A DNA stretch of 64,000 nt from Candidatus Latescibacterota bacterium (lineage in GTDB: Bacteria > Latescibacterota > UBA2968 > GCA-2709665), in the NCBI GenBank assembly GCA_965248435.1, contig OZ252100.1:928001-992000 (forward strand), given 5' to 3'. Below the pieces are notes generated by a model. That model worked only from the letters and a program-made list of their open reading frames with translations. It was not told the DNA's origin and searched no databases. The translations under genes were made by a program, and so were the position numbers. Shown in pieces: positions 15,471-32,325 of the stretch (its first letter is position 1; the number at the start of each line of letters is the position of its first letter).

Positions 15471-16376
15471 ATGAAATTAGATGAAATTCTCGTTCAACGT
15501 GCTGCTAAGGGCTGCAGCCAAAGTTTCGACACTCTGGTGAAGAAGTATCAGACTGGGATTCTTTCACTCTGCTACGAGACCGTGGGCTCCTTTGCTGAAG
15601 CACAAGATTTGACCCAAGAAACTTTTGTGCGGGCATTTGAGCGGATTGATCAACTTAGGGAATCGAAAAGATTTGTTTGGTGGCTAAGGCGAATTGCTCT
15701 CAATCTGTGCTACTCTGCTACACGAAGCCAAGTCAGAACTGAGTCAGTTGAGCTTTTTTCTCATGACAGTCCTCCGGTTTCACTCAGATCTCAGGCCCGC
15801 CAACTAGAAGCACTGGAGGACGTCGAGAAGCGCAGGACCGTGATTGATCTCTTAGACATTCTTTCCGATAAGACTCGTATCACAGCAAGACTGTTCTACA
15901 TAGACGGGCTTTCCTACCAAGAAATCAGTGATCTTCTCAACATCACGGTTACGACCGTGGAGAGTCGCCTTCACAAGGCCCGACAGAAACTCAAGATTGA
16001 ATTTAGGGACGGATATTCTGATTCAAAGCGAAGAGGTGTTCTCCAGAGACTCACTGATATTGCAGGAGGTGACAGGAAAATGGACGAAGTCCGAATCGAA
16101 ATAGGCTGTGATCTTATTGCACACGCGAAGGACGAAAGCCCGGAGGGATTCTTGGCTCAAATTCGAGAATTGCGCAATGATCTGGCAAAAGCTCACAGAC
16201 TGGGGCTTCCGCCGGTTCGGATAATTGACAAGACCGGGTTACGACAAAGAGCCTTTGACATCCTAATTCGAGAGGTTCGGTGCAAGTCAGGAGAACTGAG
16301 TACGGAAGATTCTCACATAAAGGTCATTGAAGAATTGAGGGAGTCGATTCTGGAACAGCGAAATCTGTTTGACTAA
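15471..16376 (+). CDS. ECF sigma factor with C-terminal FlhA(FHIPEP)-like domain
   Basis: AQDLTQETFVRAF, VESRLHKARQKLK; tail IEIGCDLI...IRELRNDLA...LPPVRIID resembles the FlhA cytoplasmic domain start. Confidence 0.85.
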   Translation: MKLDEILVQRAAKGCSQSFDTLVKKYQTGILSLCYETVGSFAEAQDLTQETFVRAFERIDQLRESKRFVWWLRRIALNLCYSATRSQVRTESVELFSHDSPPVSLRSQARQLEALEDVEKRRTVIDLLDILSDKTRITARLFYIDGLSYQEISDLLNITVTTVESRLHKARQKLKIEFRDGYSDSKRRGVLQRLTDIAGGDRKMDEVRIEIGCDLIAHAKDESPEGFLAQIRELRNDLAKAHRLGLPPVRIIDKTGLRQRAFDILIREVRCKSGELSTEDSHIKVIEELRESILEQRNLFD

Positions 16377-16382
16377 TTAGCT

Positions 16383-18218
16383 CTAGACTTGCTGTTTTGT
16401 TTGATCTATCAGCCCGTCTAGACGGTTCACCAACTCGGCAAGGACGGCATATGTCTTGTCTATGGGTTCGGGGGTGGAGATGTCTATCCCACACAGTTTG
16501 AAAAGGTCCATGGTGTAGAGAGAGGAACCAGCTTTGAGGAAGTTGAGGTAATTTTCCCTGGCATCGTCCGAGCCCGACAGAACCCCTTCGGCCAGGGCAT
16601 GGGCGGCGCTGATGCCGACAGCATACTGGAAGGTATAGTAAGGCATGTAAAGATGGGCGAACTGGGCCCAGGTGATTTGAGTGCGATCAGGATCGTCGAT
16701 CATGGTGGCTCCATAACCTTCGGAAAAGAGGTCCTTCATAAGGCCGTTCAAGATGTCGGCAGTGAGGGGTTTGTTCTGTTCGGCTCGACAGTAGACTTCC
16801 CACTCGAAGCGGGCAAGCGTGGGCATGATAAAGAAGTAGCGGTGAAAATTGTCCATGGCTTCGTCGATGAGTGCCATCTGAAATGTGGGATCGTCAGCCT
16901 TTTCTTCCATCAGGTAGGCCCGGGTGACGGCTTGATTGAAATTAGATGCTGTTTCAGTGACCATGGCAATGGGAAACCCTTTATAGACGTCGGGCTGCGT
17001 CTGGTCAGCGAGGTACGAGTGCATCGCATGTCCAAGTTCGTGGGCCAGAACGCTCATATCCATCAGGGTATCGTTGTAGGAAGTAAACGCAAACGCGTAA
17101 CCATCAATCGAACCCGGGGCAGCTGCGCCCTGGCGCTTACCCTCGTTGGGGGCGTAGTCAACCCACCGGTCTTCGAGGCAGCCACGAAGGAGAATGGAAA
17201 CGTATTCATCACCCAAAGGGGCCATGCCCTTGCTGATCCAGTCTATGGCCTCTTCGTAAGGGACTTCCGTCTGATCTTCAACAATCGGTGCCCAGATGTC
17301 GTAAGGGTGAAGCGTTTCCACTCCCAAGGCCCGGCGCTTGACCTCCCAGTATCGGTGCCAGGTTGATAGGTTGGCTTTGTAGGAGTCGATCAGATTGTGA
17401 AAGACTTCGACGGGGACATTGCCGGGGAAGAGGCGCGACTCAAGGACAGAGTTGTAACCACGTACCCGAATGTTGAATGCCTGTTGTTTTACGAAGGTGG
17501 CGTAGTTGTTCGCCAAAGTATTTTTGAAGCTTAGGTAACCGTCGCTGAAATTTTCCCAGGCTGTGCGCCGCTGTTCACGGTCGGGACTCTGGATACCGGT
17601 GGGCGGAATGGTAGTCTGTCCCACGTGGTACAATCTACCACTGCTATCGATGGCCTCGGCGAATTTCAGGTCGGTGTTGGTGAGTTCGACCGCGGTCTGT
17701 GAAACACCCGAAAAAGGGTCGGCCAGCAGCCCTAGGATTTCTTCGACTTCTGCAGAGCGAAGGTGGGCTTTCTGGCGGAGCAGGTTGTCGAAGAAGTGCT
17801 TGTAAATGGCCAGACGCGGCTCTCGTTTGCACCACTGCAAGAGCGAGTCACCTATCTCAAGCATTTCGGGTTCGGCAAAGGCGGAGTTGGCAACAAACCT
17901 GGAGAACACACCAATAGCCAAGCCTTGCTTAGCTTTTGCAGTGATATCGTTGCTGTCCACGGAAGAAGACATGCTCAAGTAGATCCCTACCCGATTTAGC
18001 CGCCTGACCAAGGCGAAATAGGCGTCGAACCAGTCTGCCAGGACAGTGGGGCCGTCGCCTAGTTTACCGGCAAAGTCCGACAATGCAGGCAGGGCCTCTT
18101 CGACGGCATCCAGCTCCGTCTGCCACGTGTTCCAGGACTCAAACAGCGCCTCGGCGTTCCAGGTGCTTTTTTCTGGGACGTCTTTGCGTTTGAGGACTTG
18201 ACCCGTTTCCGACATCAA
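16383..18218 (-). CDS. pepF: oligoendopeptidase F (M3B)
   Basis: HELGHAMHS zinc motif, ETASNFNQ, YYTFQYA. Confidence 0.9.
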   Translation of the reverse strand: MMSETGQVLKRKDVPEKSTWNAEALFESWNTWQTELDAVEEALPALSDFAGKLGDGPTVLADWFDAYFALVRRLNRVGIYLSMSSSVDSNDITAKAKQGLAIGVFSRFVANSAFAEPEMLEIGDSLLQWCKREPRLAIYKHFFDNLLRQKAHLRSAEVEEILGLLADPFSGVSQTAVELTNTDLKFAEAIDSSGRLYHVGQTTIPPTGIQSPDREQRRTAWENFSDGYLSFKNTLANNYATFVKQQAFNIRVRGYNSVLESRLFPGNVPVEVFHNLIDSYKANLSTWHRYWEVKRRALGVETLHPYDIWAPIVEDQTEVPYEEAIDWISKGMAPLGDEYVSILLRGCLEDRWVDYAPNEGKRQGAAAPGSIDGYAFAFTSYNDTLMDMSVLAHELGHAMHSYLADQTQPDVYKGFPIAMVTETASNFNQAVTRAYLMEEKADDPTFQMALIDEAMDNFHRYFFIMPTLARFEWEVYCRAEQNKPLTADILNGLMKDLFSEGYGATMIDDPDRTQITWAQFAHLYMPYYTFQYAVGISAAHALAEGVLSGSDDARENYLNFLKAGSSLYTMDLFKLCGIDISTPEPIDKTYAVLAELVNRLDGLIDQTKQQV

Positions 18219-18234
18219 AACTCCGGTTACTCTG

Positions 18235-18263
18235 TGCGCCGAGCCGGGGGTACCGTGTTAGCG
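18235..18263 (-). repeat. attC-like remnant (one arm)
   Basis: gcgccgagccgggggtaccgtGTTAGCG just after the HIT stop. Confidence 0.55.
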
Positions 18264-18272
18264 GGCGTGCGT

Positions 18273-18749
18273 CTACGTTGACGACACTTCCGAGTCAGCT
18301 CGAATACGAGAACCAATCTCTTCCGCAATTTTCCCCAGTAACTCTTCAGAAACAGTCCTCCTGACTCCGGGAACTGCGTAATGGGCAGGATAGTCTGGAT
18401 CATCAAATTGGCATCCTGCAAATGTCCGGACTTTGCTGTAGCGGGGAATCAGATGGAAGTGAACATGCCGATCCTGATTTTGAAGAAAAGCGTAGTTGAA
18501 GTGATCTGGACTAAAGGCTTGAGTCAAAGCTCGAGAAGCTATGCGTATTTGCTGGTGCAAATCGACCCACTCATCCTCCAAAACCTCGCTGACGACTTCG
18601 GCGTGACGACGCAATACCAAGAAGCACTTACCCAGTAGGTTCTGATTCGTGTTGACAACAAGCATCCAACGCGAGCTTTGGGAGACTATGGGAGCCAATG
18701 CTGAATCACATAGTGCACATCCAGGTCTTGCATCAATGATATTTGACAC
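18273..18749 (-). CDS. HIT family protein
   Basis: HVHFHLIPRY; GTG 18749 (the ORF-track extension reads through an attC). Confidence 0.85.
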   Translation of the reverse strand: MSNIIDARPGCALCDSALAPIVSQSSRWMLVVNTNQNLLGKCFLVLRRHAEVVSEVLEDEWVDLHQQIRIASRALTQAFSPDHFNYAFLQNQDRHVHFHLIPRYSKVRTFAGCQFDDPDYPAHYAVPGVRRTVSEELLGKIAEEIGSRIRADSEVSST

Positions 18750-18774
18750 TGTCGATTTCCTAAAACCGCAAGGC

Positions 18775-18860
18775 GCGTAACGTTCTCGCCGTGCGTGAAC
18801 TGCCGAAGGCAAGTTGGGCGAGTGCCCGAATGGGCCGAGCCGGGCAACTGCTACTAGTGG
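18775..18860 (-). repeat. attC-like site, one core degenerate
   Basis: GCGTAACgttctcgccgtgcg..gaactgcc..ggcaagtt..gagccgggcaactgctactag. Confidence 0.65.
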
Positions 18861-18969
18861 CCGTGCGGCTCCGATGGGGCTTGCCAGATCATTGGAACTT
18901 TTCTATAAAGCTACTGGCGCCAAAATGGGTCTCTATACGTAGAAGGCCTTCTTTTAGTAAGGATGGGAG

Positions 18970-20121
18970 ATGGAAGAGCTAGATGCATTAGTAGTCCGGG
19001 CTCAAGCAGGCGATCTGGCCGCTTTTGACACAATTGTTCTGCGATTCCAGGACATGGCAGTGGCCTATGCCTGCTCGCAACTGAATGATTTCCAATTAGC
19101 CCAAGATGTCGCTCAGGAAGCGTTTATTTGTGCCTTCCTAAATCTAGAAAAGGTGCGAGACCCTTCCGCATTTCCAGGATGGTTTCGCCGAGCGATCTTG
19201 ACTCAGTGTGACCGACTTACTCGGAGAAAGCAACTTTCAACTGAACAGCTAGATGAGACCGGTGATGTGGCCTCCGACCAAAAACGCCCCGACGAACTTC
19301 TGGATGAACGGAATCTAAAAGAAGAGGTGCTGACCGCGATCGAAGCGCTTCCAGAGTCTGAGCGTGCTGTTGTTTTGCTTTTCTACATCGCCGAGCACTC
19401 TCAGAAGGAAATTGCCTCTTTCCTGGAAATTGCCGTAACGAAAGTCAACAATCGGCTCCACACTTCCAGGAAGCGGCTGAGAAAGGAGTTGAGGAAGATG
19501 GAAAGCAAGAACTTACGACCTTCGCGAGACCAGGAATTTAGCGAAAAAGTGCGGAAGCACTTGAAGGGCCTAGAGAAACTTCACAGCAAGTTGGCGAGTT
19601 TGATGGGAGCGCTCATTTCGGTTGGACTGGGAACTAGCACGCAAGTAAAAGTCGCATCAGTGAATCAAGAAACATATGTCGATTTCATCGAATCTTTGCC
19701 TAATCCCAGTTGCGCTTTGACATTCAGGCTAGCACCGTCAGAAGGTAGAGTAACATTCAATATCCCAATGTCACTTGCTTGGGGGCTTCTGGACCATCTG
19801 AATCATCCAGAGGCGGCCCAAAGATTTCACAGAGAACAGAAAGTAGTCTGGGAAGAGATACAGCCTCTGGTTCCTTTTTTTAAACAAGCGGTGAAAAATC
19901 TTAGTCCCACCTGGGAAATGGAGCTCGATGTGGAAGCTTCAAAGATTGTAGTAGACACAAATCCTTTGTTGTTATTGGCCCAACCGGAGATCCGGAGTGC
20001 CGACCCGATCGAAACGGTAGTCCACCTAAGGCTTGACGTGAAGACGGAGGGAATCTCAGTCATGCTTAGCTTGTGTTATCCACCAGACATTCTGAGGTCT
20101 CTACTCCCATATCTCAACTAG
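18970..20121 (+). CDS. ECF sigma factor with C-terminal FliM-middle-like domain
   Basis: AQDVAQEAF, VNNRLHTSRKRL; tail LEKLHSKLA...VASVNQETYVDFIESLPNPS...LSLCYP. Confidence 0.87.
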   Translation: MEELDALVVRAQAGDLAAFDTIVLRFQDMAVAYACSQLNDFQLAQDVAQEAFICAFLNLEKVRDPSAFPGWFRRAILTQCDRLTRRKQLSTEQLDETGDVASDQKRPDELLDERNLKEEVLTAIEALPESERAVVLLFYIAEHSQKEIASFLEIAVTKVNNRLHTSRKRLRKELRKMESKNLRPSRDQEFSEKVRKHLKGLEKLHSKLASLMGALISVGLGTSTQVKVASVNQETYVDFIESLPNPSCALTFRLAPSEGRVTFNIPMSLAWGLLDHLNHPEAAQRFHREQKVVWEEIQPLVPFFKQAVKNLSPTWEMELDVEASKIVVDTNPLLLLAQPEIRSADPIETVVHLRLDVKTEGISVMLSLCYPPDILRSLLPYLN

Positions 20122-20151
20122 AGCGGCCAACTTCGTTTTTCGCACAATGCA

Positions 20152-21153
20152 TCATCTGGCGGTCCCACCAATCCTTAGAAGCAGCCTGTCCTCTGTCTGG
20201 TACGCCTCCTCATCTACCGTGATTTTCCAGATCTCGTTCGGTTCCGGCGGGTTCTCCACCTGCCAGAGGACGGTTTCCCTGAGTGCTTCTTTTACGGCCA
20301 CAACGTCACGGAGGCCCAGATCCCTTGAAGCGCGGGAAAGATCATACTGGCCCAGGGGTCCACTGTATATATCTCCCTCCCAAACATCGTCTGGTATCTC
20401 AACCACTTCCCATTCGTGACCCAAGATCTTAGATATCTCCTCGGCTATCTCGGGAAGCGTTTGGCATTCCATATCAGAGAGATTATAGGCCTTACCCACG
20501 GCCGCATCTGTTTCTAGAGCTGATACGACACTCGCTGCCAGATTCTTGTTGTAGCCCCGAGCAGCTGGTATTCGAAACGCCTTCCCTGGGAGGGCCAATC
20601 TGTCTCGGCCGTCCAAGACTCGCCTGATGATAGGCCACTCGCGGTATCCACCGGATCGGCCGGGACCATAGATGACCGGATAGCGGATCACGGTCGCAGG
20701 AAAGTCCCCTTCTTGACACGCTGCCAGCACCGCCCTCTCCATTAAAACCTTGTCGTAGTTCCGTGGCTCTTCCTCATAAGTCGGAGGATCTCTTAACGGC
20801 GCATCCTCCGAAATCGGTTCTTCTCCGAAGTCCGGGGCGTCTGCATACACATCGCCAGAACTGATGTGTACAGACGCCCTGATTCGGCCTCTGAAAGCCT
20901 CGATCACAGGCTTAGAGTCCGCATCGATCATGCTGAGCATGTCGATCACAGCATTTGCCTTGATCTTCTTCAGCGCCTCCCCGAACGCATCGCGATCTTT
21001 CCGATCACCATGAATGTGCTCACAATCCGGCATAAACGGGCTCTCGTGCTCCCCACGATGGTAGACCACTACCTCGTGGCCACGGTTCTGTAGTTCACGC
21101 GCAATAAAAGGACCACTGAGCCCGGTTCCACCAAGCAGAAGCACTCGCATCAA
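20152..21153 (-). CDS. NAD-dependent epimerase/dehydratase
   Basis: VLLLGGTGLSG, ISSGDVY, RYPVIYGPG. Confidence 0.85.
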   Translation of the reverse strand: MMRVLLLGGTGLSGPFIARELQNRGHEVVVYHRGEHESPFMPDCEHIHGDRKDRDAFGEALKKIKANAVIDMLSMIDADSKPVIEAFRGRIRASVHISSGDVYADAPDFGEEPISEDAPLRDPPTYEEEPRNYDKVLMERAVLAACQEGDFPATVIRYPVIYGPGRSGGYREWPIIRRVLDGRDRLALPGKAFRIPAARGYNKNLAASVVSALETDAAVGKAYNLSDMECQTLPEIAEEISKILGHEWEVVEIPDDVWEGDIYSGPLGQYDLSRASRDLGLRDVVAVKEALRETVLWQVENPPEPNEIWKITVDEEAYQTEDRLLLRIGGTAR

Positions 21154-21914
21154 TCACCCACACGAATTTGACGATCGTCGCCTACAGGATGCCGCATCCA
21201 AACATTTGGATCGGCATAGTATCCCTGATCCCGCTCGCGATCTATTTCTACTGGCTGCAACGCCCCTGACACAATGTAAGAACCACTTTCTGGAAACTGC
21301 AACCCGGTCCACGTCTCCCACTCGGCTATTGCGCCGATAACCACTACTCCTTTGGGAATCACCTTCAGCCTTTTAGCCCCCAGACGCCAGTGAACCCGAA
21401 CCCAGGGATCAAACGGCGAACCATCTTCCCGAGTCCAGCTTAGATATGTCTCGAAGGGTGTAAGCTGATAGGAGGGCTTCAAGGTAGGTCGCACAGGGGC
21501 GATGAGCGCGCTCAATCCGCGTTCGGCCGCCATGTCTGCCATCGCCTGCACCATCGTTCTGCTGTGCCCTTTTCGTCGGTGAGCGGGTGCTACCATCACT
21601 GCCAAGGCCGAGAGCGCTGTTGCGGTCTGATGGCGTTCCACCACCTCTTTCGCGCGGACAAAAATCGTGTGGAGGTCAGGGGGCAAATCTGCGAGCGACT
21701 CATCCCATACGAGGGGCAATGTGTGGCCGACCGCAATCACATCCTGCGAAGCGTCGCATAGAACCAGCTGAAACTCAGCAAATTGCTCGAAGAGGAGGTG
21801 CCAAAAGAGGATATTGGTGTGACGAAGGAATTCCGGCCACGCAGCAACGCTTAAGCGGTGGATCTGGTCCTCAAGGTCTGGCTTCTTTTCGAGAGTGATA
21901 AGTCTGTACGACAC
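21150..21914 (-). CDS. GNAT-like acetyltransferase
   Basis: VAPAHRRKGHS, APVRPTLK, DPWVRVHWRLG. Confidence 0.75.
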   Translation of the reverse strand: MSYRLITLEKKPDLEDQIHRLSVAAWPEFLRHTNILFWHLLFEQFAEFQLVLCDASQDVIAVGHTLPLVWDESLADLPPDLHTIFVRAKEVVERHQTATALSALAVMVAPAHRRKGHSRTMVQAMADMAAERGLSALIAPVRPTLKPSYQLTPFETYLSWTREDGSPFDPWVRVHWRLGAKRLKVIPKGVVVIGAIAEWETWTGLQFPESGSYIVSGALQPVEIDRERDQGYYADPNVWMRHPVGDDRQIRVGD

Positions 21915-21951
21915 AGGTTGATCCTATTTGCGCTTTGCATTCAGAATCAGC

Positions 21952-22735
21952 TCACATTGCTGAGGCTGCGACGGTTAGCCACACGGGTAAACCGGCACGA
22001 GGATTCGCTTTCCAGTCTACCGAGGTTTCATCTGCTCCAAAGTCATATTGGCTTCCCTGCCAGAACCGGGAATCTGCACGACTTTCAACTATCCTCGTTA
22101 TCGTTAAGCCTGCTTCCCAGAGCGGATTCAGCAAGTCTGACAGAGTCCAATGAAATTCGTAGGATTCCTCTTCAGACACTCGAAATGGTCCGGTCTCCCA
22201 GTAAGACTTCTCCATTTCAATAGGCGATACTTGATCTTTCCACGGGCGCATGAATGGATGGATGTCGTAGAAGACATAGGACCCTCCCGGCTTCAGTATT
22301 CTCGATACTTCGCGGAATACTCCGGCAACATCAGCGATCCACACGAAAAAGCCATTCGTGGAGCAAACAAGATCAAAGGTCGAGTCGCCTGCGAACTCTA
22401 GAGATGCAGCATCGGCACGAACAAAATCGATCGACAAGCCGAGCTTCTCCGCCCTACGCGCAGACAGTTTCAATCGCTCCTCGGAGATGTCTGTCGAAGT
22501 CACCTCTGCCCCCAGCCCTGCGAAAGCGTACGCCGCAAGGTTATCCCCACTGCCAATGATGCACACCTGCTTGATCTCCAGCCATCTCTCGAATTGTCTC
22601 TAGAGCCCCGCCCTCAAATGCCAATTCCGGTTCCTTGTGACACCTTCGCCACCGATCGCTGCGATTTAGTCGGTCTTCCCATGTTGTTGCCTGCTCGTCC
22701 CAGATTCGACGGTTGGCTTCGTGCATTTTGTTCAT
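21952..22735 (-). pseudogene. class I SAM methyltransferase split by a frameshift near 22573
   Basis: MNKMHEANRRIWD...EMAGD | KQVCIIGSGDN; reads GAT C AAG CAG GTG. Confidence 0.75.
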
Positions 22736-22761
22736 ATCTGATCGGTTGTGCTGAACTGTTC

Positions 22762-23613
22762 TTAACGGAGAGATGCTATCAGCTGACTCGCTCTTTTGTG
22801 TACACCGTCGGGAGCACCATAAAACACCGATACTGTCTTGCCCTCGCGGTCAAACACAAAAATTGTCGGAACCACAACAAAGTCTCCAAAGGCGGCCAAG
22901 ACCTCTTCTGTGCCAATCGCGATGGGAACTGAATTGTCCAAGGAAGCTGCAAATTCTCTGACGTCCTTTTCTTCAGAATCCACTGCCAAGGCCAGAACCC
23001 CTACATCATCACCATACTCACGCGCAAGGTTACCAAGCCACTTCATTGATCTACGGCATGGCGGACACCATGTCGCCCAGAGTTCGACCACCGCAATCTT
23101 TCCCGACAGATCGCCCGATCTGATAGACTCACCTTTCAGATTGTGGATGACGAATTTCGGCATCTCGTCGATCTCGCTATCTTCTTCCACGCTTTCAGGC
23201 TGCCCAAGAACATCCTCACCGCGGAGCGTAAGATCGATCATTTGCTTGAGGTCCCTTCGATACAGATCATAGCTCCCCGGGATCTTCCAGGAATACTTTC
23301 CCTCTTTCTTCCAGCTGAAATCCTTACGCCGTGCGAGAAGGGCCTCATTCACAAAGACAGCCGGGTACTTCATCACACCGTAGCGTGTAGCAAGTTCAGA
23401 TTCTCCAAAATTCTCGCTGGAAAACACGACCTGCCCACCATATTCACGCACCACTTCCTTAGTCAGCAAACTTGCTGGATCGGAAACGCCTCACGTATCG
23501 GGCCAGCGCACCAGAGTTACAGTAATTGGAGACATTCCCTGGCCTGCGGAGCTCAATGATTGTGGTATGAATCCGCAAGCCACTAACAGAAAGATCCCGC
23601 TCAGCCGTTTCAT
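22762..23613 (-). CDS. secreted TlpA-like thiol oxidoreductase, probable selenoprotein (UGA at 23493-23491)
   Basis: Signal peptide from ATG 23613, in frame via VRWPDT-U-GVSDPA into the WATWCPPC domain; hairpin after the UGA. Confidence 0.72.
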
Positions 23614-23661
23614 CTTTCAACCTCCTCTACAAAGGTGAAATAGCGGGGCAAAATATCTTCA

Positions 23662-24716
23662 GCTGGATTCAATGACTAAGTGCAACACTTGGACTTGAAG
23701 ACTTCAGCTGGTGTTTTGAAGTTAAGACATTTTCTTGGTCGGTTGTTGATCCGGTTCTGAATTTTCTTTAACTCGTGTTTGCTGACCTTTGAGAAGTCTG
23801 TCTTCTTGGGGAGGTATCTGCGGACCAGACCGATAGCGTTTTCCACAGCGCCTCGCTCCCAGCTGTGGAACGGTTTGCAGAAATAGGATTTGGTGCCAAG
23901 CACCTCGTTGACCCGTTGATGTTGGCCGTTTTCGGATCCGTTGTCATATGTGATGCTCTTCCTCATGTGGGGAGGATGTCGCCCAAGGCGTCGATTAATC
24001 GCTTCGGCGACCTCCGAGGGTCCGTTCTTTGCCAGCTTAGCCAGGTGTAGGTATCTCGACGATCGCTCAAGACAAGCGCCAACGGCCTGTTTGCTCTCAC
24101 GAGAGATGATGGTGTCGGATTCCCAGTGGCCAGGTTGTTTCCGTTTTTCGATGTAACGGGGACGTCGATCGATCGAAATACGGCCTGGAATGTGGCTTTC
24201 CCGGTGTTTTCGGGTATGCCACCGCGGCTTTCGTTTTTTGTGAGCTCGGGATAAGCAAGCAACCAGATCCCGCTGCTTGTGCACCTTTGGATCGTAGATA
24301 TACTGGTAGATGGCTTCGTGGCTGATACCCGCGCTCGGACGCTCCTCGGGAAGCCTCCCAGCGATCAACTCGGGAGACCATCCTTGCTTGAGTTTGGTCT
24401 CGACATATCGCCGGATAACCGGATTCTTCAGCCGTTTCCGCTTGCCGGCCTCCCGCTTACGTTTCTCAGCCCTTCTGTGAGCCTGGAGGCCCGAGTAACT
24501 CTCAGCTATCGGGGACGGATTACGTTTCAACTCTCTTGAAATCGTGCTGGCGCTCCGGTCAAGGGCCTTGGCAATATCTCTAAGGCTTGCACCAGTGGCT
24601 CGACAAAGCGCAATCTGCTCGCGTTCGTCTATCGTAAGATGCTTGTAATTGTTTCCCATACACTTAGGATAGGACAGTTGCTACCCTAAGTGTTGCACTT
24701 CCTTATTGAACTCGGG
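23662..24716 (-). mobile_element. IS30-family insertion sequence
   Basis: Imperfect IRs sharing ttcaat..aagtgcaacactt; TCA duplicated at 23659-61 and 24717-19. Confidence 0.9.
23676..24659 (-). CDS. IS30-family transposase
   Basis: STISRELKRN, WSPELIAG, GHWESD, DNGSE, WERGAVEN, NNRPRKCL. Confidence 0.95.
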   Translation of the reverse strand: MGNNYKHLTIDEREQIALCRATGASLRDIAKALDRSASTISRELKRNPSPIAESYSGLQAHRRAEKRKREAGKRKRLKNPVIRRYVETKLKQGWSPELIAGRLPEERPSAGISHEAIYQYIYDPKVHKQRDLVACLSRAHKKRKPRWHTRKHRESHIPGRISIDRRPRYIEKRKQPGHWESDTIISRESKQAVGACLERSSRYLHLAKLAKNGPSEVAEAINRRLGRHPPHMRKSITYDNGSENGQHQRVNEVLGTKSYFCKPFHSWERGAVENAIGLVRRYLPKKTDFSKVSKHELKKIQNRINNRPRKCLNFKTPAEVFKSKCCT

Positions 24717-25742
24717 TCAATGATTACCGCCGCCAGTTTGAGGTCCTTATCGTTCTGATCGCCGAGGCCTGACCTGTCGAGCGCTGCCTTCCCTATTTGA
24801 AGATACAGCTGACCGATACTCTGATCGATCTCGCTTGAAGATAAACGCGCCTTGGCCAACTCATACGCTTCAAGCAGGGGGGCAACTGCAGAAGTGTCAG
24901 GTGATGCGCGAACCAACTCCCCGAATCGGAGGTGTGCTTCTAAATACTTGTAGAATGCGCCGTAAAGCAGTCCTTTCTGATCTAACTCGCGTGCAGTCTT
25001 CAACGTAGAATTTACCACATTGTAGGGCACGTGTCCTTCCGGGTCTTTATCCTCAAGCTCTCGATTTCGATCGATTAGCGCGCCCTCCAGTATGGCCAGC
25101 TCAGGTTCCATAGACCGAAGCGTAAGCGAAGCAGATCCGTCGTCGAACTCAAGACCCTGACAATAGATAGCAAAGTCGAGGTCCGGCTCGGACATGCCTA
25201 TGTAGTAAAGGCCTGGGGAAATTCTGAATCTCATACCATAAAATCCCCCACCTGTATAGTGCCTGTCGCTCAAGAAACGGGAGACCTGTGCCAACGCCTT
25301 TACGGCCGAAGGGAGACTCACCTCTGAAACATCCACGAGCAGCTTCTGCTTCGCCTTCAACCTTTCGCCAAGCTTCTCCCACTCGCGTTGAAAGGCGGCA
25401 ACTCCTTGATTCTCCGAATCCCGTTCAGGATCATAGATCGTCTTTCGGTGGTCAAGATGCGTCGGAGTCATCACGTTGACCCATCCACGTCTCAGCTCTT
25501 GCAAGCTCAAATAGAGATGGCCAGACGCTAACGCCGTTTCCACATCGGTCAATCGCGCCAAACCCTTCTCCTTCGTCTTGCGCCACCAATTCTCACCTGA
25601 TTTGTCAAGATCCGTCTGCTGCCTGAGCTGGTCTATCTGGACAGCGATCTGATCCCCCACGCGCGGCTTCTGACAGGAGCCCGCTAGGACCAGGAGCAGG
25701 GAACATCCAATAGCACGCAATCTCAATTGATATCGTCTCATC

Positions 25743-26483
25743 TCACTCCTGGCTCCGAAGTTTCTCGATCTGTTTCGCGACGAATTTCGCTCGAGGCATG
25801 ATCTCTAGGGCCTTTTCAAAGCTTTGAAGTGCACTCTCCCGATCTCCCCCCCTCTCGAGGAGGAATCCAAGGTTCAGATGGGTCCCGAAAGATTCAGGAA
25901 AGTGCTCCAGATTCACCTTTAAGAGCGCTTCCGCCAATCCGGCCTCACCCAATTCCTCAAAGTGATGAGAGATAGGCCAGAGAGCCTTCTCGCCGAAGTC
26001 GTAACCGGCGCGTCCGTAGTATTTTTTTCGAAGCTGCCGGTACCTTGTCAACGTAGAGTCTTCTCCTCCTGCTGCCATCGTTTCTTCCAAAACCTGCATC
26101 AGGGTCTGGGGTCGCGTGTGTCCGCGGTGACAGGTCTCGCAGGTGACATCGAGCAAATCGGTGCGCCCTGTCTTCGTTAACAGTTCAGTGTTGATCGCCA
26201 GGGTCATTCGCATCATCGCCCGAGCGACCTTCTTGGTCTCCTTCTCGTCCAAAGCATAAGCCATCTTTCTTGGGTTGCTGGGGTCTTTGACGTGGCAGTG
26301 TGAGCAGTTCACGCCGAGCCCCTGAGTGAATGCATTCATCACCTTATGGATTATCTTGAGGTCTGTACCGGCTGGAATAACTTCAAGGTTGGTTGCCACG
26401 TAGTCTTCTGATGCGTTGACAGGCACCCACACTAAGGCAACGAGAACTCCGATGTTAACAAAACGAGCCAAGTTGCTCATCAT
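25743..26483 (-). CDS. diheme c-type cytochrome with C-terminal TPR
   Basis: Signal peptide, CSHCH and CETCH, TPR-like tail. Confidence 0.82.
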   Translation of the reverse strand: MMSNLARFVNIGVLVALVWVPVNASEDYVATNLEVIPAGTDLKIIHKVMNAFTQGLGVNCSHCHVKDPSNPRKMAYALDEKETKKVARAMMRMTLAINTELLTKTGRTDLLDVTCETCHRGHTRPQTLMQVLEETMAAGGEDSTLTRYRQLRKKYYGRAGYDFGEKALWPISHHFEELGEAGLAEALLKVNLEHFPESFGTHLNLGFLLERGGDRESALQSFEKALEIMPRAKFVAKQIEKLRSQE

Positions 26484-26513
26484 ATTCCTCCTTACCAGTA
26501 ATATGCCTCGTCT

Positions 26514-27056
26514 TTACTTGACGAGTGAGCTAAACAACCGAAGCTCGTTCCTTTGGGCCTCTGACAACCGCAATTCTTTGTTCGCCTGGTCAGGGTATAT
26601 CTCTGCTTGATCCCACTGTTCATTAATAATGCTGGTGGCAATCCCGATCTTGACTCCTCTATTTCGAAGCTCTGCCACGAGTTCTTGTGCATTTAAAAGA
26701 AACACCCAATCAATGTGCCAGGGTCGAGCTTCTCCGCGCGAAGTCATCGATTCTGCCTTCGGACCCGTGAATACCAGATAGTAGTCGGGCAAGGCATCTT
26801 CTCGTATATCGAGCAGACCTTCTCGCTTTGCGTAAAACTTGATATTTACTGTCTTTCCATTGAGGGAACCTTCTTCGAACACACCATCGATGCCCTTGAC
26901 TGTGGCAGACTCCTCAAGTCGAATGTTAAAGACTTTCGAAGCTACATACTCTCCGACATGACCGATCTGAGCAGGCCTACCGATGATTCGGGTGGTTTCT
27001 CGAGCGACCTGATTGCGCTGCCTAATGAGATCTGCAAGCTCCTCGATATCGCTCAC
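26514..27056 (-). CDS. hypothetical protein, possible PD-(D/E)xK-like nuclease fold
   Basis: GHVGEYVA...GIDG...VNIKFY. Confidence 0.5.
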   Translation of the reverse strand: MSDIEELADLIRQRNQVARETTRIIGRPAQIGHVGEYVASKVFNIRLEESATVKGIDGVFEEGSLNGKTVNIKFYAKREGLLDIREDALPDYYLVFTGPKAESMTSRGEARPWHIDWVFLLNAQELVAELRNRGVKIGIATSIINEQWDQAEIYPDQANKELRLSEAQRNELRLFSSLVK

Positions 27057-27318
27057 TCAACCTCTCTCCTTGAACGTTCCTCTCCTCTGTAGAGCTGATG
27101 GGGGCCTCGATTCAACTTGCTGAGGGCCAAATCTCAAATCCGCTCAGATTTCGTCATTCTGAGACCTCTACCCGTCACTAGAATCAAAAAGACCTTGAGC
27201 CAGAGGTCATAAAACGCGGAAATTTCGTCGTTCTCGACGCAATCTATATCTGAACAGGGGCACCCTGGAGATCTCACGGGAGAGAACGAGAATCTGTCGC
27301 TAAGCATTGATGGCCTGA

Positions 27319-27942
27319 TTAAGGAACGAACCCAAACGTGTTCTCGACCACTCCTGGAGTCAAGCTGTAGATAGAACAACCAATGGCTTCTTCAAAATCC
27401 TTCTGGATTTGAAAAATCGCCTTCCATTTCGTGATCATTTGATCAGACCCCCAATTACCATCAGACCGAATCGCTCCATCCACCATTCTTTTCTCAAGCA
27501 GACAGAAGCCCGTTGGCAATGCAAGATCGTCACATAGTTGTAGCAACCTGTCATAGTCGTTATACTCAATCTCATCCAAGAAATCTCGCACCACCTTGCA
27601 GTCGGCCTCCGTGCAATCCCATTTCGCGAAGTCAAGCCTCACCTCCTTGCATGGAAACGAGTGAGTCAGACAGACGCGAGCGGCGTCCGCAAAGCCTTCG
27701 CCAGTCAAGAATTTGTAACCCTCCACAATGTGACGCATCCCCACCCGACCCACGCGCCGCCCTATGTCGTGCAGAATCCCCAGAATGTGAGCAGTTTCTG
27801 AATTAAGGTCTTCGTGTTTGGCTGCGATGGCTCTGGCAGCTTTGGCTACAACCATAGAGTGGTCCACCCACTTTCCGGGATTGAGCCTTTCTGCTTCTCT
27901 GAGGTAATTCTGTGCTTGATCCAGAGTTGGCACGCGAGTCAT
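27319..27942 (-). CDS. HD domain phosphohydrolase
   Basis: HS..VA, LHDIGR; ATG 27942. Confidence 0.85.
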   Translation of the reverse strand: MTRVPTLDQAQNYLREAERLNPGKWVDHSMVVAKAARAIAAKHEDLNSETAHILGILHDIGRRVGRVGMRHIVEGYKFLTGEGFADAARVCLTHSFPCKEVRLDFAKWDCTEADCKVVRDFLDEIEYNDYDRLLQLCDDLALPTGFCLLEKRMVDGAIRSDGNWGSDQMITKWKAIFQIQKDFEEAIGCSIYSLTPGVVENTFGFVP

Positions 27943-27955
27943 TAGCACTCCGATG

Positions 27956-28037
27956 AAATAACGTTCCAGGCACTTGCGCGAACCCCGGAGGGGTTGGTCG
28001 AGGCCGGACGGCCTGAGCCGCAAGTGCTATGTTATAA
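27956..28037 (-). repeat. attC-like site
   Basis: AAATAAC..gcacttgcg...cgcaagtgc..GTTATAA. Confidence 0.85.
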
Positions 28038-28157
28038 GCCGTGCCGGTTATCAATCATTACTCCTGCAAGTAACAGAAATATCTTCATAAAGAAAGATTT
28101 TCTTGGCATAATGGTGCTTTAGTTATAGAAGGCCTTCTGAGCTGCTAAGGATGTGAG

Positions 28158-29315
28158 ATGGAAGAGCTGAAAGCACTGGTCAAACTGGCGCAAGCTGGTG
28201 ATCTGAAGGCGTATGACAAGATTGTCGATCGCTTCCAGGACATGGCTATGGGATATGCCTACTCACTACTGGGAGACTTTCATCTGGCTGAGGATGCATC
28301 TCAAGACGCCTTTGTTGAAGCGTATCTGTACCTGGCTAAGTTACAAGATCCTTCAGCCTTTCCGGGTTGGTTTCGACGCATTGTGTTCACACGCTGTAAC
28401 CGGATAACTCGTAAGAAGCGGATTGCCATGGTGGATCTGGAAGTCGCTAGCGAGACTTTGTCAGATGAAAAGGGACCTGAGCAGCTTCTGGAAGAGCAAG
28501 TACTGAAAGACCAGGTCCTACAGATTATCCGCGCTTTGCCAGAGGCTCAACGTACTGTTGTGATGCTCTTCTACATCTCCGAACTCTCTCAAAAAGAGAT
28601 TTCTGCTTTTCTGGAGATACCCATAACTACGGTCAACAACCGGCTCAACGTCTCCAGGAAACGACTGAAAGAGGAGATACTGAATATGGCAACCGAAGAC
28701 TTACAAGCACAGAATCCCTCCAGGGATCGAATATTCGCGGAAAAGGTACAGAATCACCTGCAAGTCATTAGGAGCATTCACAATGAATATGCTTCGCGCC
28801 TAACAGATCTTTTCTCTCGTTCGCTAGGTAGAAAAGTGGATCTTACAGCATTAGCCGTGGAGCAGTCCACCTACGATGCGTTCATCCAATCACTGCCAAA
28901 GCCATGTTGCGCATACACCTTCTCGTTCAACATACCGACTCAGAAGGATGGCGGATGGGTCATCCTTGATTTGTCGAGACCCTTTGGTTGCGCGCTTGCA
29001 GGCAGAACTACCGAATCGGGGAATACACCTACGGAATTAAGCATTAATGAACGCAATAGGCTTGGCCCGATTATCACCAATTTGGTGGCCAACTTTGGCA
29101 TAATTTGGAAATTTCCACCCGGTGTCCTATCAGACGCCTATATACATGAGGACCCAGAAGAACTACCGTCGTATCCTCACGCAGATCGGGAAGAACCTAT
29201 AATCCAGGCAAAACTGATGATCGAGGCCGATGGGCTTTCGGGTATTGCCGGACTATGTTATCCAGCCAACACAATTGAAAAGGTGATTTTGCCCTATCTT
29301 GATCAAAGAGTATAG
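28158..29315 (+). CDS. ECF sigma factor with C-terminal FliM-middle-like domain (inverted cassette)
   Basis: Paralog of 18970; tail IHNEYASRLTDLFSRSLGRKV...VEQSTYDAFIQSLPKP...GLCYP. Confidence 0.87.
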   Translation: MEELKALVKLAQAGDLKAYDKIVDRFQDMAMGYAYSLLGDFHLAEDASQDAFVEAYLYLAKLQDPSAFPGWFRRIVFTRCNRITRKKRIAMVDLEVASETLSDEKGPEQLLEEQVLKDQVLQIIRALPEAQRTVVMLFYISELSQKEISAFLEIPITTVNNRLNVSRKRLKEEILNMATEDLQAQNPSRDRIFAEKVQNHLQVIRSIHNEYASRLTDLFSRSLGRKVDLTALAVEQSTYDAFIQSLPKPCCAYTFSFNIPTQKDGGWVILDLSRPFGCALAGRTTESGNTPTELSINERNRLGPIITNLVANFGIIWKFPPGVLSDAYIHEDPEELPSYPHADREEPIIQAKLMIEADGLSGIAGLCYPANTIEKVILPYLDQRV

Positions 29316-29343
29316 ATTCCATAATCGTCTAAAACCGGCTGGC

Positions 29344-29426
29344 TTATAACGTGTTCCCCGAACCTGGCGAAGCCAGGTTGTAGCGAAGGCGCGTATGCGC
29401 CGAAGCCGGGTGTACTCGTGTTAAGC
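29344..29426 (-). repeat. attC-like site
   Basis: TTATAAC...gaacctggc gaa gccaggtt...GTTAAGC. Confidence 0.75.
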
Positions 29427-29978
29427 GCTGGTGCAGCCCTACTGCGGAGCTTTAGGTAGCTTTCTCAGTTCAATTCTGAGGCGCTCCAGGCTGTCCTGAG
29501 GCCATGCCTTGTTTCTGTCGTATCCTTCTTCAAACTGGGGGACATGAGCCGGCAGCTCAAGCCAGGCGTGCTTTTCTTTGGTCCAAATGTGTGCATTTAT
29601 CTCAAGAACCCTCATGTCGTCCAACGTTCGCGATCTCAATAGAGCAGTGGCCGGGTGATTAGTAGCAGTCCTGTAGATAACATCCTCGCAGGATTCGCAG
29701 AGGAACGTCGTTCGATGCGCCGCAATACGCTCCGAGACAAGTTTGCCCTGATCGAATCTAAGATCGCTTTCAAGAACGATGGTCGTAATCCCGAAGGCGG
29801 AACCGGAAGCCTTCTGACAGTCTAGGCAATGACATGCGTGCACAAAAAGAGGCGGGTTCCCAAGTCTGTATCGCACCTCTCCGCAGCTACAGCCACCGGA
29901 GAACTGGCAGTTCTTAGTCATACGCTCCTCCAGGTCAAGCCTGTCCCGCCATCAATCCGCTCTACGCGCGGGTTTGCC
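29388..29978. repeat. 591 bp direct repeat of 36254-36844
   Basis: Offset 6866 bp; two substitutions seen. Confidence 0.92.
29439..29921 (-). CDS. GFA family protein (copy 1)
   Basis: GGCSCG, CHCLDCQK, CESC. Confidence 0.88.
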   Translation of the reverse strand: MTKNCQFSGGCSCGEVRYRLGNPPLFVHACHCLDCQKASGSAFGITTIVLESDLRFDQGKLVSERIAAHRTTFLCESCEDVIYRTATNHPATALLRSRTLDDMRVLEINAHIWTKEKHAWLELPAHVPQFEEGYDRNKAWPQDSLERLRIELRKLPKAPQ

Positions 29979-30034
29979 CGAATCCCCCCCTCACATCCTT
30001 CGATTAGCCGTGCGTTGTCAAGTTGAGCGATATG

Positions 30035-30927
30035 TTATACCGACCACTCGATGCCATCGAATGCTGCCCGCTGCGCATCGAAGAAGTGCCACCACTTGTC
30101 TAGCCACGGTTCATCAATCCCGCTACCCTTCGCGCAATCCACAATGACAGCTCTTATATTTCTCAGTTGAGTTGAGATCGCGTTCTCTTTCTCAGGTCCC
30201 ATCAACGATTCCGGGTCTGATTGAACGAGGTCAAGGATTCGGTCGACGCCCTCGAGCACCCGTGACCCGGTCGGCGAGAGCGCAGCAGCGACGTAAAGCC
30301 ACTTTGAGTATGGGAAGACTCTTCCATCTATCACAAGAGCGCAACGAATCGAATAGTTGATGGTCTCGAGTACACTGCTGAGAGCTGACAGCCGGTCGTT
30401 TCGATCCATGGGGTTATCTGCGTTACGATGAAAGCCTCTCATCTCAACATAGTTGAACAGCAGTGCTGCCCGTCGTAATTTCTCGTGCATTGGCAGACAA
30501 GCTCGGCTTTGGATTGCATCAAATCGACCGCTCGGATCGAGAACAGCCACTGCGTGTTGGAGTTCGTAGATGCTCTCAAGCTCTGGTGTGGCAAACGCAT
30601 TGTGGATGTCCGCAAACGACGTGACGTTGAGGTGACCGGGCTTGCCGTTGATGATCACGCCTACAAACCTGGATGGTGAAAGCGAATCGAATCGAGTTGC
30701 ACTTTCGTCATCCATCAGTAGGTAGAAGTCGAGGTCCGATGAAGGATCATCAACGTTGCGGGTGGTCGATCCATGAAGCACTACACATCATCACCAAAAG
30801 CTGAAAGGACGGGCGGTCGCTCTTTCGAGGCGAAGAATTTGCGCGACTGGGCCACCCACTTGGATCGGTTCTCGCCGGTGCCGTTTTCGCGATACGAATT
30901 GATTAGCTTCCCGAATGTATTGTCCAT
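30035..30927 (-). pseudogene. nucleotidyltransferase-domain protein, probable frameshift at ~30785
   Basis: MDNTFGK...FGDDV | VVLHGS...SDLDF; one extra base joins the frames. Confidence 0.6.
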
Positions 30928-31049
30928 GATGTGCGATTACGCCACGAAGCTGTGGTCGGTATAACTAGTGTTTGAACGGCGAATATGCAGCACATCTCGC
31001 GATATTCTGGAGATATACTGCAAGGTTCTGATTTCACTTTTCCCATTTC

Positions 31050-31184
31050 ATCTAACGTTCCGCAGGTTGCCGAAGCGGCTGTACATCAACAATATAGTAA
31101 AATGCCTCCCGGTAGGGGAGGCTGGTGACCTACAGCCGCTTTGGCGAAGGTCGTACGACCTGAGCCGGCAACCTGCTGTTATAA
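31050..31184 (-). repeat. attC-like site (long variant)
   Basis: ATCTAAC..gcaggttgcc..aagcggctgta...tacagccgctt..ggcaacctgc.GTTATAA. Confidence 0.85.
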
Positions 31185-31276
31185 GCCGTGCCGCCGTAAA
31201 TTAGTAAAACAAAGAGAAGCCGCCCAGAGGGGGCTTTCCCTGTGCGGTATTACCGTCTATGACTGGTTGTCCGTCG

Positions 31277-32122
31277 TCAGTCAACCAAAGAAGGCCGAAT
31301 GGTGCCAGCCCTCTGTAGATCGTGGATAGTCTTCAAAATCGTCGTGCGCGATGTATCAATCTCAGCCTCTGATGGTGACCTCTCTTCAATCATGTGTTGC
31401 ATGATTCCTTGAACACGCTTTGAAATGTTCCGCATGATCTTGTCTTCAACCCGGCGTGCGGCGTTGTCTTTCCTCACCAGGGCAATCGCGAGATCCTCGG
31501 TAAAGGTCTTCCTGAGCGTGGCCACCATCTCCTCATCTGTCAGCTTTGACCAGTCCGCGAAGGATTCTACATCCACTCTATCTGATTTCTCATCCATAGC
31601 GATCAACTCCTGTCTTAGTCTCTGCCGGCCACGGTGCAGGCGGACTTTCACGGCGTTTTTCGAGATAGCGAGTGATTCACTCACAGAATCCACACGCATC
31701 CCAAGAAGGTAGTAGAGGACGACAGCCTCCCTTTCTCCTTCCGGCAGGCAGTCCAGCACATCAAGAATCTGGCGCCTGCGCTCCTCCCGTTCGTATACCT
31801 CATCTGGAGAAAGGTCTAGTGCCGGCGTCCCGTCAGGGTCAATGCCATTCTCCTCGACCTTGGGCCGTCGCAGTTGCATTTTGCAGAGATTAATGGCTAT
31901 TGAACAGACCCAGTTCCTAAACTGGTCAGCGTCCCTGAGGCTCGGCAGGTCGGTAAAGGCCGCAATGAACGCCTCCTGTGCGACATCATCGGCCAGGCCA
32001 ATGTCCTTTAAATACCCCGTTGCCAGCCCGCGCACCGTGCCATAGTGACGCTTCACTAGGATGCCGAAGGCATTTGTATCACCCTCAAGCGACCTAGTCA
32101 CGAAAACATTGTCATTCATCAA
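31277..32122 (-). CDS. ECF sigma factor with C-terminal FliG-C-like domain
   Basis: ADDVAQEAF, VKVRLHRGRQRL; tail FADWSKLTDEEM..LR...DLAIAL...KIMRNISKR...ILKTIHDLQRAGTI. Confidence 0.87.
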   Translation of the reverse strand: MMNDNVFVTRSLEGDTNAFGILVKRHYGTVRGLATGYLKDIGLADDVAQEAFIAAFTDLPSLRDADQFRNWVCSIAINLCKMQLRRPKVEENGIDPDGTPALDLSPDEVYEREERRRQILDVLDCLPEGEREAVVLYYLLGMRVDSVSESLAISKNAVKVRLHRGRQRLRQELIAMDEKSDRVDVESFADWSKLTDEEMVATLRKTFTEDLAIALVRKDNAARRVEDKIMRNISKRVQGIMQHMIEERSPSEAEIDTSRTTILKTIHDLQRAGTIRPSLVD

Positions 32123-32213
32123 CTCTCCGCTTGTTGAAGGCCCTCACAAGGTAGGATGCTGACTGGTGTGGTTTGGTTACATGGGTTTCCGAGATTTCCC
32201 CCGGCGGCATGGC

Positions 32214-32305
32214 TTGTAACGTTCTGGCCACTTGCGAACCCGCCGCAGGCGGGTTGCCGTAGGCCAAGGCGCGTATGCGCCGCAGGGCAAGTGGACGTGT
32301 TATAC
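32214..32305 (-). repeat. attC-like site
   Basis: TTGTAAC..ccacttgc...gcaagtgg..GTTATAC. Confidence 0.85.
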
Positions 32306-32325
32306 GGCTTTTGTGCCTTCAAACT

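Follow-up and report, generated by a model that had tools for sequence, protein, structure and literature searches.

Four extracytoplasmic function sigma factors with C-terminal flagellar-protein domains, in and beside an array of integron-like cassettes, and their place among sigma factors with swapped tails

Sigma factors of the extracytoplasmic function (ECF) type form a major bacterial signalling system, and the input signal of most of their groups is not known. In the FliA (sigma-28)/FlgM system the flagellar export apparatus is coupled to sigma activity, and export of FlgM frees sigma-28. Control can also lie within the sigma factor itself. The main text of PMC7826278 gives precedent for regulation by C-terminal extensions in 19 ECF groups, and describes SnoaL-like extensions in ECF41, ECF56, ECF294 and ECF295, TPR extensions in ECF42, Cys-rich extensions in ECF238, DUF1835 in ECF264 and multi-transmembrane extensions in ECF263. 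Here, we analyse a stretch of 64 000 nt (the window; C1:928001-992000 of a 5.67-Mb genome, G000, of a Candidatus Latescibacterota bacterium) that holds four ECF sigma genes, each of which ends in a domain of a flagellar protein. We name them after their tails and give their positions in the window: sigma-FlhA (15471), sigma-FliM1 (18970), sigma-FliM2 (28158) and sigma-FliG (31277). We propose, with a probability of about one half, that these genes encode one-component ECF sigma factors in which a swappable C-terminal protein-binding domain serves as the input module.

All four open reading frames carry Sigma70_r2 and Sigma70_r4_2 above the curated Pfam cut-offs, with no Sigma70_r3 listed, and all four pass the NCBIfam sigma70-ECF model TIGR02937 (75-98 bits, against a cut-off of 42.9). 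Each has one flagellar domain at its C-terminus, again above the Pfam curated cut-off, within a tail of 100-200 aa. A sequence search of the PDB placed the sigma-FlhA tail on FlhA residues 361-434 (E 0.0037) and the sigma-FliG tail on the C-terminal domain of Thermotoga FliG (E 1.6e-6). Together with the Pfam domains and the Foldseek superposition of the sigma-FliM1 tail described below, these matches bear out, for all four genes, the FlhA, FliM, FliM and FliG tails that a preliminary description of the window had assigned by eye. The four genes account for every Sigma70_r4_2 match in the window, out of 25 in the genome. Sigma-FliM1 and sigma-FliM2 are 46% identical, and the core of sigma-FliG represents an ECF lineage distinct from theirs. 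The most likely start of sigma-FliG is the ATG at 32119 (280 aa) rather than the listed TTG at 32122; P0006, a relative with 86% identity, starts in the same way.

None of the 20 neighbouring open reading frames scanned matched an anti-sigma Pfam family, and two of them had no Pfam match at all; the lack of an adjacent anti-sigma gene that had been noted by eye holds over this range. Their extensions past sigma4 exceed 50 aa, and these neighbours include no anti-sigma gene: the four genes have the make-up of one-component ECF sigma factors. Pfam gave no match to a SnoaL or TPR extension, of the ECF41 or ECF42 type, in the four proteins, and Rfam gave no match within the window.

Each tail, when aligned with the proteins of the host, covers one entire domain and ends at a natural border, with 26-30% identity to host FliM, FliG and FlhA. 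The host genome is that of a flagellated bacterium: it encodes a full FlhA as well as two FliM and three FliG, and the suggestion that these domains might be reused in a non-flagellated host is therefore set aside. The FliM tails span the middle domain from its first helix to its last strand (LCYP...) and end before the position of the FliN-like domain; they have the fold of that domain by profile and, for sigma-FliM1, by model, and are without GGXG, a CheY-binding N-terminus or a FliN-like C-terminal domain. Where host FliM reads FGGTG, the tails read LNHPE or have a deletion, and GGXG is absent from 22 of 22 sigma-FliM proteins, in which the loop at this position is hypervariable. In the part of PMC6700473 on which we draw, GGXG is the FliG-binding motif of FliM and its partner is the EHPQR motif of the FliG middle domain; the roles of FliG Arg-281, Asp-289 and the MFXF hinge are taken from the same part.

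The FliG tail begins at the position of the MFXF hinge and so comprises the CC subdomain only; without the N domain and the EHPQR-bearing M domain it is not a full FliG. Its torque helix keeps the Arg and has, seven positions on, a His in place of the acid equivalent to Asp-289. The FlhA tail consists of the end of the linker and SD1 with one further helix behind it, and includes neither SD2-SD4 nor the membrane domain; the protein matches a limited part of the FHIPEP profile rather than the whole of FlhA.

The sigma-FliM proteins have many relatives with other tails. A search with a sigma-FliM profile gave 130149 matches at E<=1e-3, with 1488 representatives reaching E<=1e-30, and most of the top 150 representatives (203-968 aa) match profile positions 1 to about 200 only, at 230-270 bits. 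In ten of ten proteins examined singly, the tail starts about 200-240 residues in, past a sigma4 match that ends at about 172-186. Once the shared linker was removed, 140 tails fell into 50 BLAST clusters, 35 of them singletons. Across 151 clade proteins, Pfam counted Ank_2 in 24, FliM in 20, FliG_C in 12, T2SSF in seven, tRNA-synt_2d (the PheRS core) in five, BFN_dom in five and T2SSE in two, and found single tails of Citrate_synt, PilM_2, DNA_pol3_finger/alpha, ATP-synt_ab, Rho_RNA_bind, Response_reg, HATPase_c, Clp_N and other kinds; PilC/PilB/PilM-like and GNAT tails also occur. FliG_C tails are thus found within the sigma-FliM clade too. A core-selected set, whose 24 members come from named Chloroflexota, Poribacteria, Acidobacteriota, KSB1, Hydrogenedentota and others, added SecA, ankyrin, TPR, PheRS and ATPase tails. 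Sigma-FliM1 and sigma-FliM2 therefore belong to a large, multi-phylum ECF clade with at least 50 unrelated kinds of tail, most of them non-flagellar.

The part of the protein that joins core and tail is constant in this clade. A motif in the post-sigma4 linker, P-S-x-D-x-x-F-x-x-x-V, is conserved, and its Phe is at least 90% conserved in two alignments (A3 and A4) and invariant in a third (A6). Within the sigma-FliM family, mean identity is 47% for the cores and 25% for the tails, the tail being the lower in 228 of 231 pairs: tails evolve faster than sigma cores. The family nevertheless keeps the residues of the fold core (H205, W315, C369 and Y370) across more than 20 clusters at 50% identity. 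No neighbour genes are conserved across 27 clade loci, save in one group of four syntenic relatives. Elsewhere in the window's genome, an ECF gene with a tail like a 3-keto-disaccharide hydrolase adjoins an ankyrin-tailed one (C1:3216614-3217771 and 3218453-3220171).

The clade genes stand alone, each with its own conserved ECF-type promoter, predicted in several phyla as AACCTTT, a spacer of about 12 nt and GGGnCT. AACCT, ACCTT and CCTTT each occur in 13-15 of 27 clade upstream regions (shuffle maximum 11), and the bipartite pattern, which was picked after viewing the sequences, in 14 of the 27 (shuffle mean 0.6, maximum 5). In the taxonomic family of the host, the -10-like part is followed by a palindrome, GAAGGCCTTC, which precedes the clade genes of four genera. 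It is exact 5′ of sigma-FliM1 and sigma-FliM2, has one mismatch 5′ of sigma-FliG and of one ankyrin paralogue, and is absent upstream of sigma-FlhA. The best copy of the clade promoter belongs to the third ankyrin-tailed ECF gene of the genome (C1:2110314-2111762). A sigma-54 reading of the upstream element, considered by eye, was dropped: its spacing is off by one and it fails for sigma-FliM1.

In the one-component reading that we propose, a sigma2-sigma4 core is joined to a complete domain that binds proteins and is a copy of part of some cytoplasmic machine. Tail and linker would gate the sigma factor, either by holding sigma2 and sigma4 in a closed form unable to engage RNA polymerase or by tethering it to some partner. 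The sigma factor would be freed when the tail gains or loses its protein ligand, and would then transcribe its own gene, in a positive feedback, together with a further regulon. For the flagellar tails, the ligand might be a protein that normally touches FliM-M, FliG-CC or FlhA-SD1, or something that targets them, and the contact would be made elsewhere than at the canonical GGXG or torque-helix sites.

An AlphaFold2 model of sigma-FliM1, built from a 150-sequence alignment, has a mean predicted local distance difference test score (pLDDT) of 88.7 and a predicted template modelling (TM) score of 0.84; it supersedes an earlier model from five sequences (pLDDT 51). Foldseek superposes its tail on crystal structures of the FliM middle domain with TM scores of 0.80-0.84 (4gc8_B, TM 0.84, root mean square deviation 2.9 A), and less well on FliY and CheC. 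The sigma part fits ECF factors bound to anti-sigma factors (4cxf_A, TM 0.70, deviation 4.9 A; 5wuq_B, TM 0.65), and does not superpose on those bound to RNA polymerase (deviation 26-28 A). The closed conformation predicted by the model agrees with gating by the tail or the linker.

Several points weigh against this proposal. Regulation by the tails is something that we infer from sequence and from a model, and the closed conformation of that model may echo anti-sigma complexes in the AlphaFold training set. Folds as unlike as citrate synthase, ankyrin and FliM are hard to imagine gating one core alike, unless that is the task of the common linker. The profile that ranked the top 150 representatives included the FliM tail, so that FliM is over-represented among them (23 of the 140 clustered tails are FliM-like, and Pfam sees FliM in 20 of 75), and the 24-member set selected on the core held no FliM or FliG tail. 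The cores of sigma-FlhA and sigma-FliG are about 33% identical to the sigma-FliM clade and lack its linker motif, so these two genes are placed in the same functional class by analogy. As for the promoter, its -35 half is degenerate before sigma-FliM1 and sigma-FliM2, and the strict pattern has one site in the genome, before an ankyrin-tailed paralogue. The pattern of -10 part and palindrome has 24 genome sites, three before clade genes and the rest chance-like. Exact copies of GAAGGCCTTC number 54 in contig C1 against 6.4 expected, mostly within coding sequence; with one specified mismatch allowed, seven of 91 sites lie outside all open frames of at least 110 aa. No regulon could be defined from genome scans with the promoter and palindrome patterns. 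Among sequencing runs, a search listed none of RNA with this sequence; four runs of a single study contain the DNA and probably represent the source sample.

We searched for attC-like repeats with an nhmmer model built from the window's own intergenic repeats, and folded hairpins against 200 shuffles. The window has 22 matches, all on the + strand, in an array that runs from 18770 past the window end; the same model finds 95 in the genome, in about ten arrays (among the others C1:1439398-1445618, 2058107-2088808, 3853476-3871860 and 5334829-5340116). The repeats start with ..TAAC and finish with GTTA.., and the hairpins on either side of sigma-FliM2 are bulged, with none of the 200 shuffles as good (Table 1). 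Sigma-FliM2 is the sole gene between two attC-like hairpins, in the orientation opposite to the other cassette genes, and sigma-FliG is a single-gene cassette between the elements at its two ends; both genes thus have the structure of mobile integron cassettes. Sigma-FliM1 lies at the truncated end of the array with a truncated attC on one side only, and sigma-FlhA lies 2.4 kb outside with no attC of its own.

No TIGR02249 match to an integron integrase was found in or near the window, and we therefore describe the array as an attC-site cluster without an integrase. Six identical IntI-like recombinases elsewhere in the genome (Phage_int_SAM_4 plus Phage_integrase; 314-aa frames) adjoin other arrays and point towards them; they score 104 + 93 bits in two pieces, below the TIGR02249 cut-off of 265. 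Of the integron setting put forward in the preliminary description, the attC-like array and two cassette genes stand, but no integrase accompanies them in or next to the window. The finding shows that a cassette of an integron can bring along an entire regulator together with its promoter.

Table 1. Sigma genes, their tails and associated elements in the window (window positions)
Feature	Position	Strand	Details
sigma-FlhA(SD1)	15471..16376	+	301 aa; ECF sigma aa 1-180, then ~105-aa tail; FHIPEP 35.5 bits (cut-off 29.1), aa 196-282 = profile 322-408 of 657
FlhA SD1-like tail of sigma-FlhA	16056..16373	+	aa 196-301; Pfam, host FlhA alignment, PDB match
Leftmost attC-like repeat, truncated, without 3′ GTTA end	18770..18850	+	120 nt 5′ of sigma-FliM1; z -1.27
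sigma-FliM1 upstream element	18927..18951	+	-10-like GGGTCTCTA, then palindrome GAAGGCCTTC at 18942-18951
sigma-FliM1	18970..20121	+	383 aa; ECF sigma, conserved linker RPSRDQEFSEKV, complete FliM middle domain; FliM 57.6 bits (cut-off 27), aa 194-380 = profile 10-190 of 192
Linker and FliM-middle-like tail of sigma-FliM1	19525..20118	+	aa 186-383
attC-like hairpin left of sigma-FliM2 cassette	27955..28048	+	nhmmer; folding z -3.64
sigma-FliM2 upstream element	28113..28137	+	GGTGCTTTA ... GAAGGCCTTC at 28128-28137
sigma-FliM2	28158..29315	+	385 aa; FliM 31.3 bits (cut-off 27)
attC-like hairpin right of sigma-FliM2 cassette	29340..29432	+	nhmmer; folding z -4.0
Long attC-like element (TAACGTTCCGCAGGTTGCCG...CGGCAACCTGCTGTTATAA), directly 3′ of sigma-FliG	31053..31185	+	read by eye, partial repeat match; missed by nhmmer
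sigma-FliG_CC	31277..32119 (open reading frame list to 32122)	-	281 aa as listed; FliG_C 40.1 bits (cut-off 23.3), aa 187-275 = profile 20-106 of 108
FliG_CC-like tail of sigma-FliG	31280..31564	-	Pfam, host alignment, PDB match
sigma-FliG upstream palindrome copy	32136..32145	-	one mismatch, GAGGGCCTTC
attC-like hairpin 5′ of sigma-FliG	32210..32308	+	nhmmer; folding z -2.64

Other features of the arrays include an ankyrin-tailed ECF gene of the sigma-FliM clade (gene start C1:5336247) that also lies between attC-like sites. Between sigma-FliM1 and sigma-FliM2 the window has a 9-kb stretch with no detected attC, in which an IS30-like transposase (HTH_38 plus rve) lies at 23676-24659 on the - strand. 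A 300-nt exact repeat (29388-29687 = 36254-36553) marks the duplication of a GFA-family cassette gene (29439-29921, again at 36305-36787) with its attC end. Two cassette frames of unassigned function, 18273-18812 at the left end of the array and 56042-56602, are 80% identical over 300 nt; as their listed starts overlap attC-like repeats, both frames probably begin further inside.

A different account of the swapped tails is that each mimics a host protein that is attacked by phage proteins, toxins or antibiotics. Binding of the attacker to the tail would free the sigma factor, which would amplify its own gene, so making more decoy, and would possibly turn on defences. The four genes would then be the flagellar representatives of a widely distributed class of sigma factors that carry baits: self-contained, self-amplifying and mobile in integrons. 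By analogy such a class is conceivable, and we regard both the account and its extension to a whole class as unlikely. Shuffled, fast-evolving tails on a constant core would suit it, as would a distribution that is patchy even inside a genus, the two single-gene cassettes of the attC array, and the own promoter and lack of partner genes of a self-contained module. Essential machines are well represented among the tails, as are the cytoplasmic portions of flagella and of type IV pili, and sedentary integrons are reported to store anti-phage systems (bioRxiv 10.1101/2024.07.02.601686, in the part used here). On the other hand, PADLOC returned no family for nine of the ten proteins scanned, sigma-FliM and sigma-FliG having no defence-model match and sigma-FlhA a single CARF match of 17 bits; no effector gene is linked; and many tails (ankyrin, TPR and GNAT) are not obvious targets. 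Mimicry of a host target is also made doubtful by the mere 26-30% identity between tails and host proteins.

Word-seeded tail searches covered 5.8 billion proteins, an exhaustive profile search covered 1.84 billion representatives, and the phylum sample comprised 168 genomes. The word-seeded search found three other sigma-FliM proteins and one other sigma-FliG, besides a second copy in the window's own genome, and no other sigma-FlhA; the exhaustive search added about 20 clusters with the full sigma-FliM architecture. As the combination of sigma factor and flagellar tail recurs in other assemblies (P0002, P0003, P0004 and P0006), the fusions are real rather than assembly artefacts. Within the phylum sample, G161 is the only other genome with a sigma-FHIPEP protein (34% identical to sigma-FlhA; FHIPEP 40.9 bits), and near-full sigma-FliG_C matches occur in four genomes (G058, G002, G065 and G063). 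No sigma-FliM was found in the 21 other genomes of the family. The ESM Atlas gave only plain ECF clusters (about 190-225 aa) for sigma-FliG and sigma-FliM1, and no fused cluster of at least 50 members. A related-locus search returned 80 loci, none with a full-length sigma-FliM match; as its search pattern fell in the sigma core, the loci were those of clade members with different tails.

The preliminary description had favoured docking, in which the FliM, FliG and FlhA tails bind the C-ring or the export gate, and the sigma factor is held at the flagellar base until assembly, rotation or export state releases it. The host has complete flagellar genes, and every tail corresponds to an entire domain of the appropriate kind that is predicted to fold well. 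The gene flhA is present in five of six carriers of a sigma factor with a flagellar tail and in 58 of the 162 other phylum genomes, an association with a Fisher p of 0.028 that becomes 0.064 without the window's genome and that counts relatives which are not independent. Only three of 22 genomes of the family have flhA, G000 among them, and the other genome of its genus does not; flagella are therefore patchy in this lineage. An exact GAAGGCCTTC also lies at C1:3528480, about 45 nt 5′ of the probable flhA start, a placement that may be chance.

Against docking stand the loss of GGXG in all 22 sigma-FliM proteins and the hypervariable loop in its place, the His at the Asp-289-equivalent position of the FliG tail, and the low identity of the tails to host proteins. 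Furthermore, G161 carries a sigma-FlhA(SD1) gene although no flhA was found in that genome, which is 92% complete; the genes are accessory and in cassettes, with sigma-FliM in none of the 21 other family genomes; and most tails of the same sigma clade are non-flagellar. The docking logic is thus weakly supported, and we hold it to be improbable, more so than the decoy account. The argument that three subunits of one machine are unlikely to meet by chance is weakened too, because the sigma-FliM clade draws its tails from at least 50 unrelated, mostly non-flagellar families. What stands of it is that three sigma lineages, about 33% identical to each other, bear flagellar tails in this one genome, and that such genes tend to co-occur with flhA.

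Two further explanations are very improbable. That sigma-FliM and sigma-FliG might pair through their tails, as FliM and FliG do in the switch, to form a two-sigma switch would suit genes 2-11 kb apart in the window with a common upstream palindrome, and the 86%-identical relatives P0002 and P0006, which share one 50582-bp contig; yet the known contact is between FliM GGXG and the EHPQR of the FliG middle domain, and the FliM tails lack the one and the FliG tail the other, which weighs against this suggestion of the preliminary description. Evolutionary debris, in the sense of chance chimeras from cassette shuffling whose tails have no selected function, is hardly credible either: the second sigma-FliG copy of the genome is broken in two and an IS30-like transposase sits within the array, but all four window genes are intact, domain borders are precise, the model is confident, and the sigma-FliM family has kept its fold core over more than 20 clusters.

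That second sigma-FliG_C gene is 91% identical to the window copy. It is split, with the promoter, the palindrome and the initial 35 codons at C1:5348138 and the remainder at C1:5324457-5325197; with its two parts about 23 kb apart, it is a disrupted copy. The domains seen as tails also occur in other contexts. Stand-alone FliM-middle-like (186 aa) and FliG-C-like (232 aa) proteins are encoded outside flagellar clusters, at C1:3186008-3186643 and C1:2513186-2513917, next to NUDIX/SnoaL/BNR and HAD/methyltransferase genes, and the whole 232-aa FliG-C-like protein is matched by several ECF tails of other genomes. A 573-aa protein (C1:31617-33338) has the FliG M and C domains, a helix predicted to lie in the membrane and an extended C-terminal part; its layout resembles that of membrane anti-sigma factors. 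In G110-G116, G120, G121 and G131, frames of 100-150 aa, some with an internal stop, match FHIPEP positions ~321-410 only; the FlhA-SD1-like domain is therefore also a small stand-alone protein in the phylum.

We found no description of ECF sigma factors with flagellar, ankyrin or housekeeping-protein tails in the open literature, subscription journals and supplements lying outside the search. The preliminary description had called flagellar extensions unfamiliar, and a term search for flagellar, ankyrin, SecA or Rho extensions in the main text of the ECF reclassification paper and two ECF reviews (PMC7826278, PMC8999054 and PMC7671368) agrees with it in finding none. The sigma-FliM clade of tail-swapping ECF factors is therefore apparently undescribed, although Supplementary Text S2 or Table S2 of PMC7826278, outside the search, may list such a group.

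Because the putative input module can be recognized as part of a known machine, one can guess at its probable ligands and test them directly. If the tails report on their cognate machines, they would provide a simple and general wiring of the state of flagella, pili, secretion, replication and termination to transcription. If they are instead baits, they would represent a new class of immune sensor, in which attack on flagellar or pilus bases, Rho, DNA polymerase III, PheRS or SecA is turned directly into transcription. In either case, the pairing of a constant core with a swappable tail is modular by nature, and synthetic protein sensors could be built on this design.

Plant NLR integrated decoys, and target-like sensors such as BlaR1, fuse a copy of a target to a signalling core. 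Sigma factors with tails as bait would resemble them in this respect, by pure analogy, and would be for bacteria what integrated decoys are for the immune receptors of plants. For docking, FliA/FlgM is the closest working analogy, with the difference that FliA is a group-3 sigma factor under a separate, exported anti-sigma factor, whereas here part of a flagellar protein is joined to an ECF sigma; a FliA-like gene of the host's own lies at C1:3523535-3524395, adjoining flhA. The tail of sigma-FliM1 shares the fold common to FliM-M, CheC, CheX and FliY, and differs from FliM in missing the CheY-binding N-terminus, GGXG and the FliN-like domain. DdvS/DdvA, as presented in the part of PMC11506125 used here, is an ECF system that controls a CBASS-CRISPR defence island, and it has a separate transmembrane anti-sigma factor and linked defence operons; the four sigma genes have neither. 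The published extension ECFs, as set out in the main text of PMC7826278, are like the four genes in their sigma2-sigma4 core, an extension of more than 50 aa, no nearby anti-sigma gene and an extension seen as the regulator. Unlike them, the extension here is a flagellar-protein domain or, in the wider clade, a domain of any of at least 50 families; and where each published group has one type of extension, here a single clade carries many types behind a constant linker.

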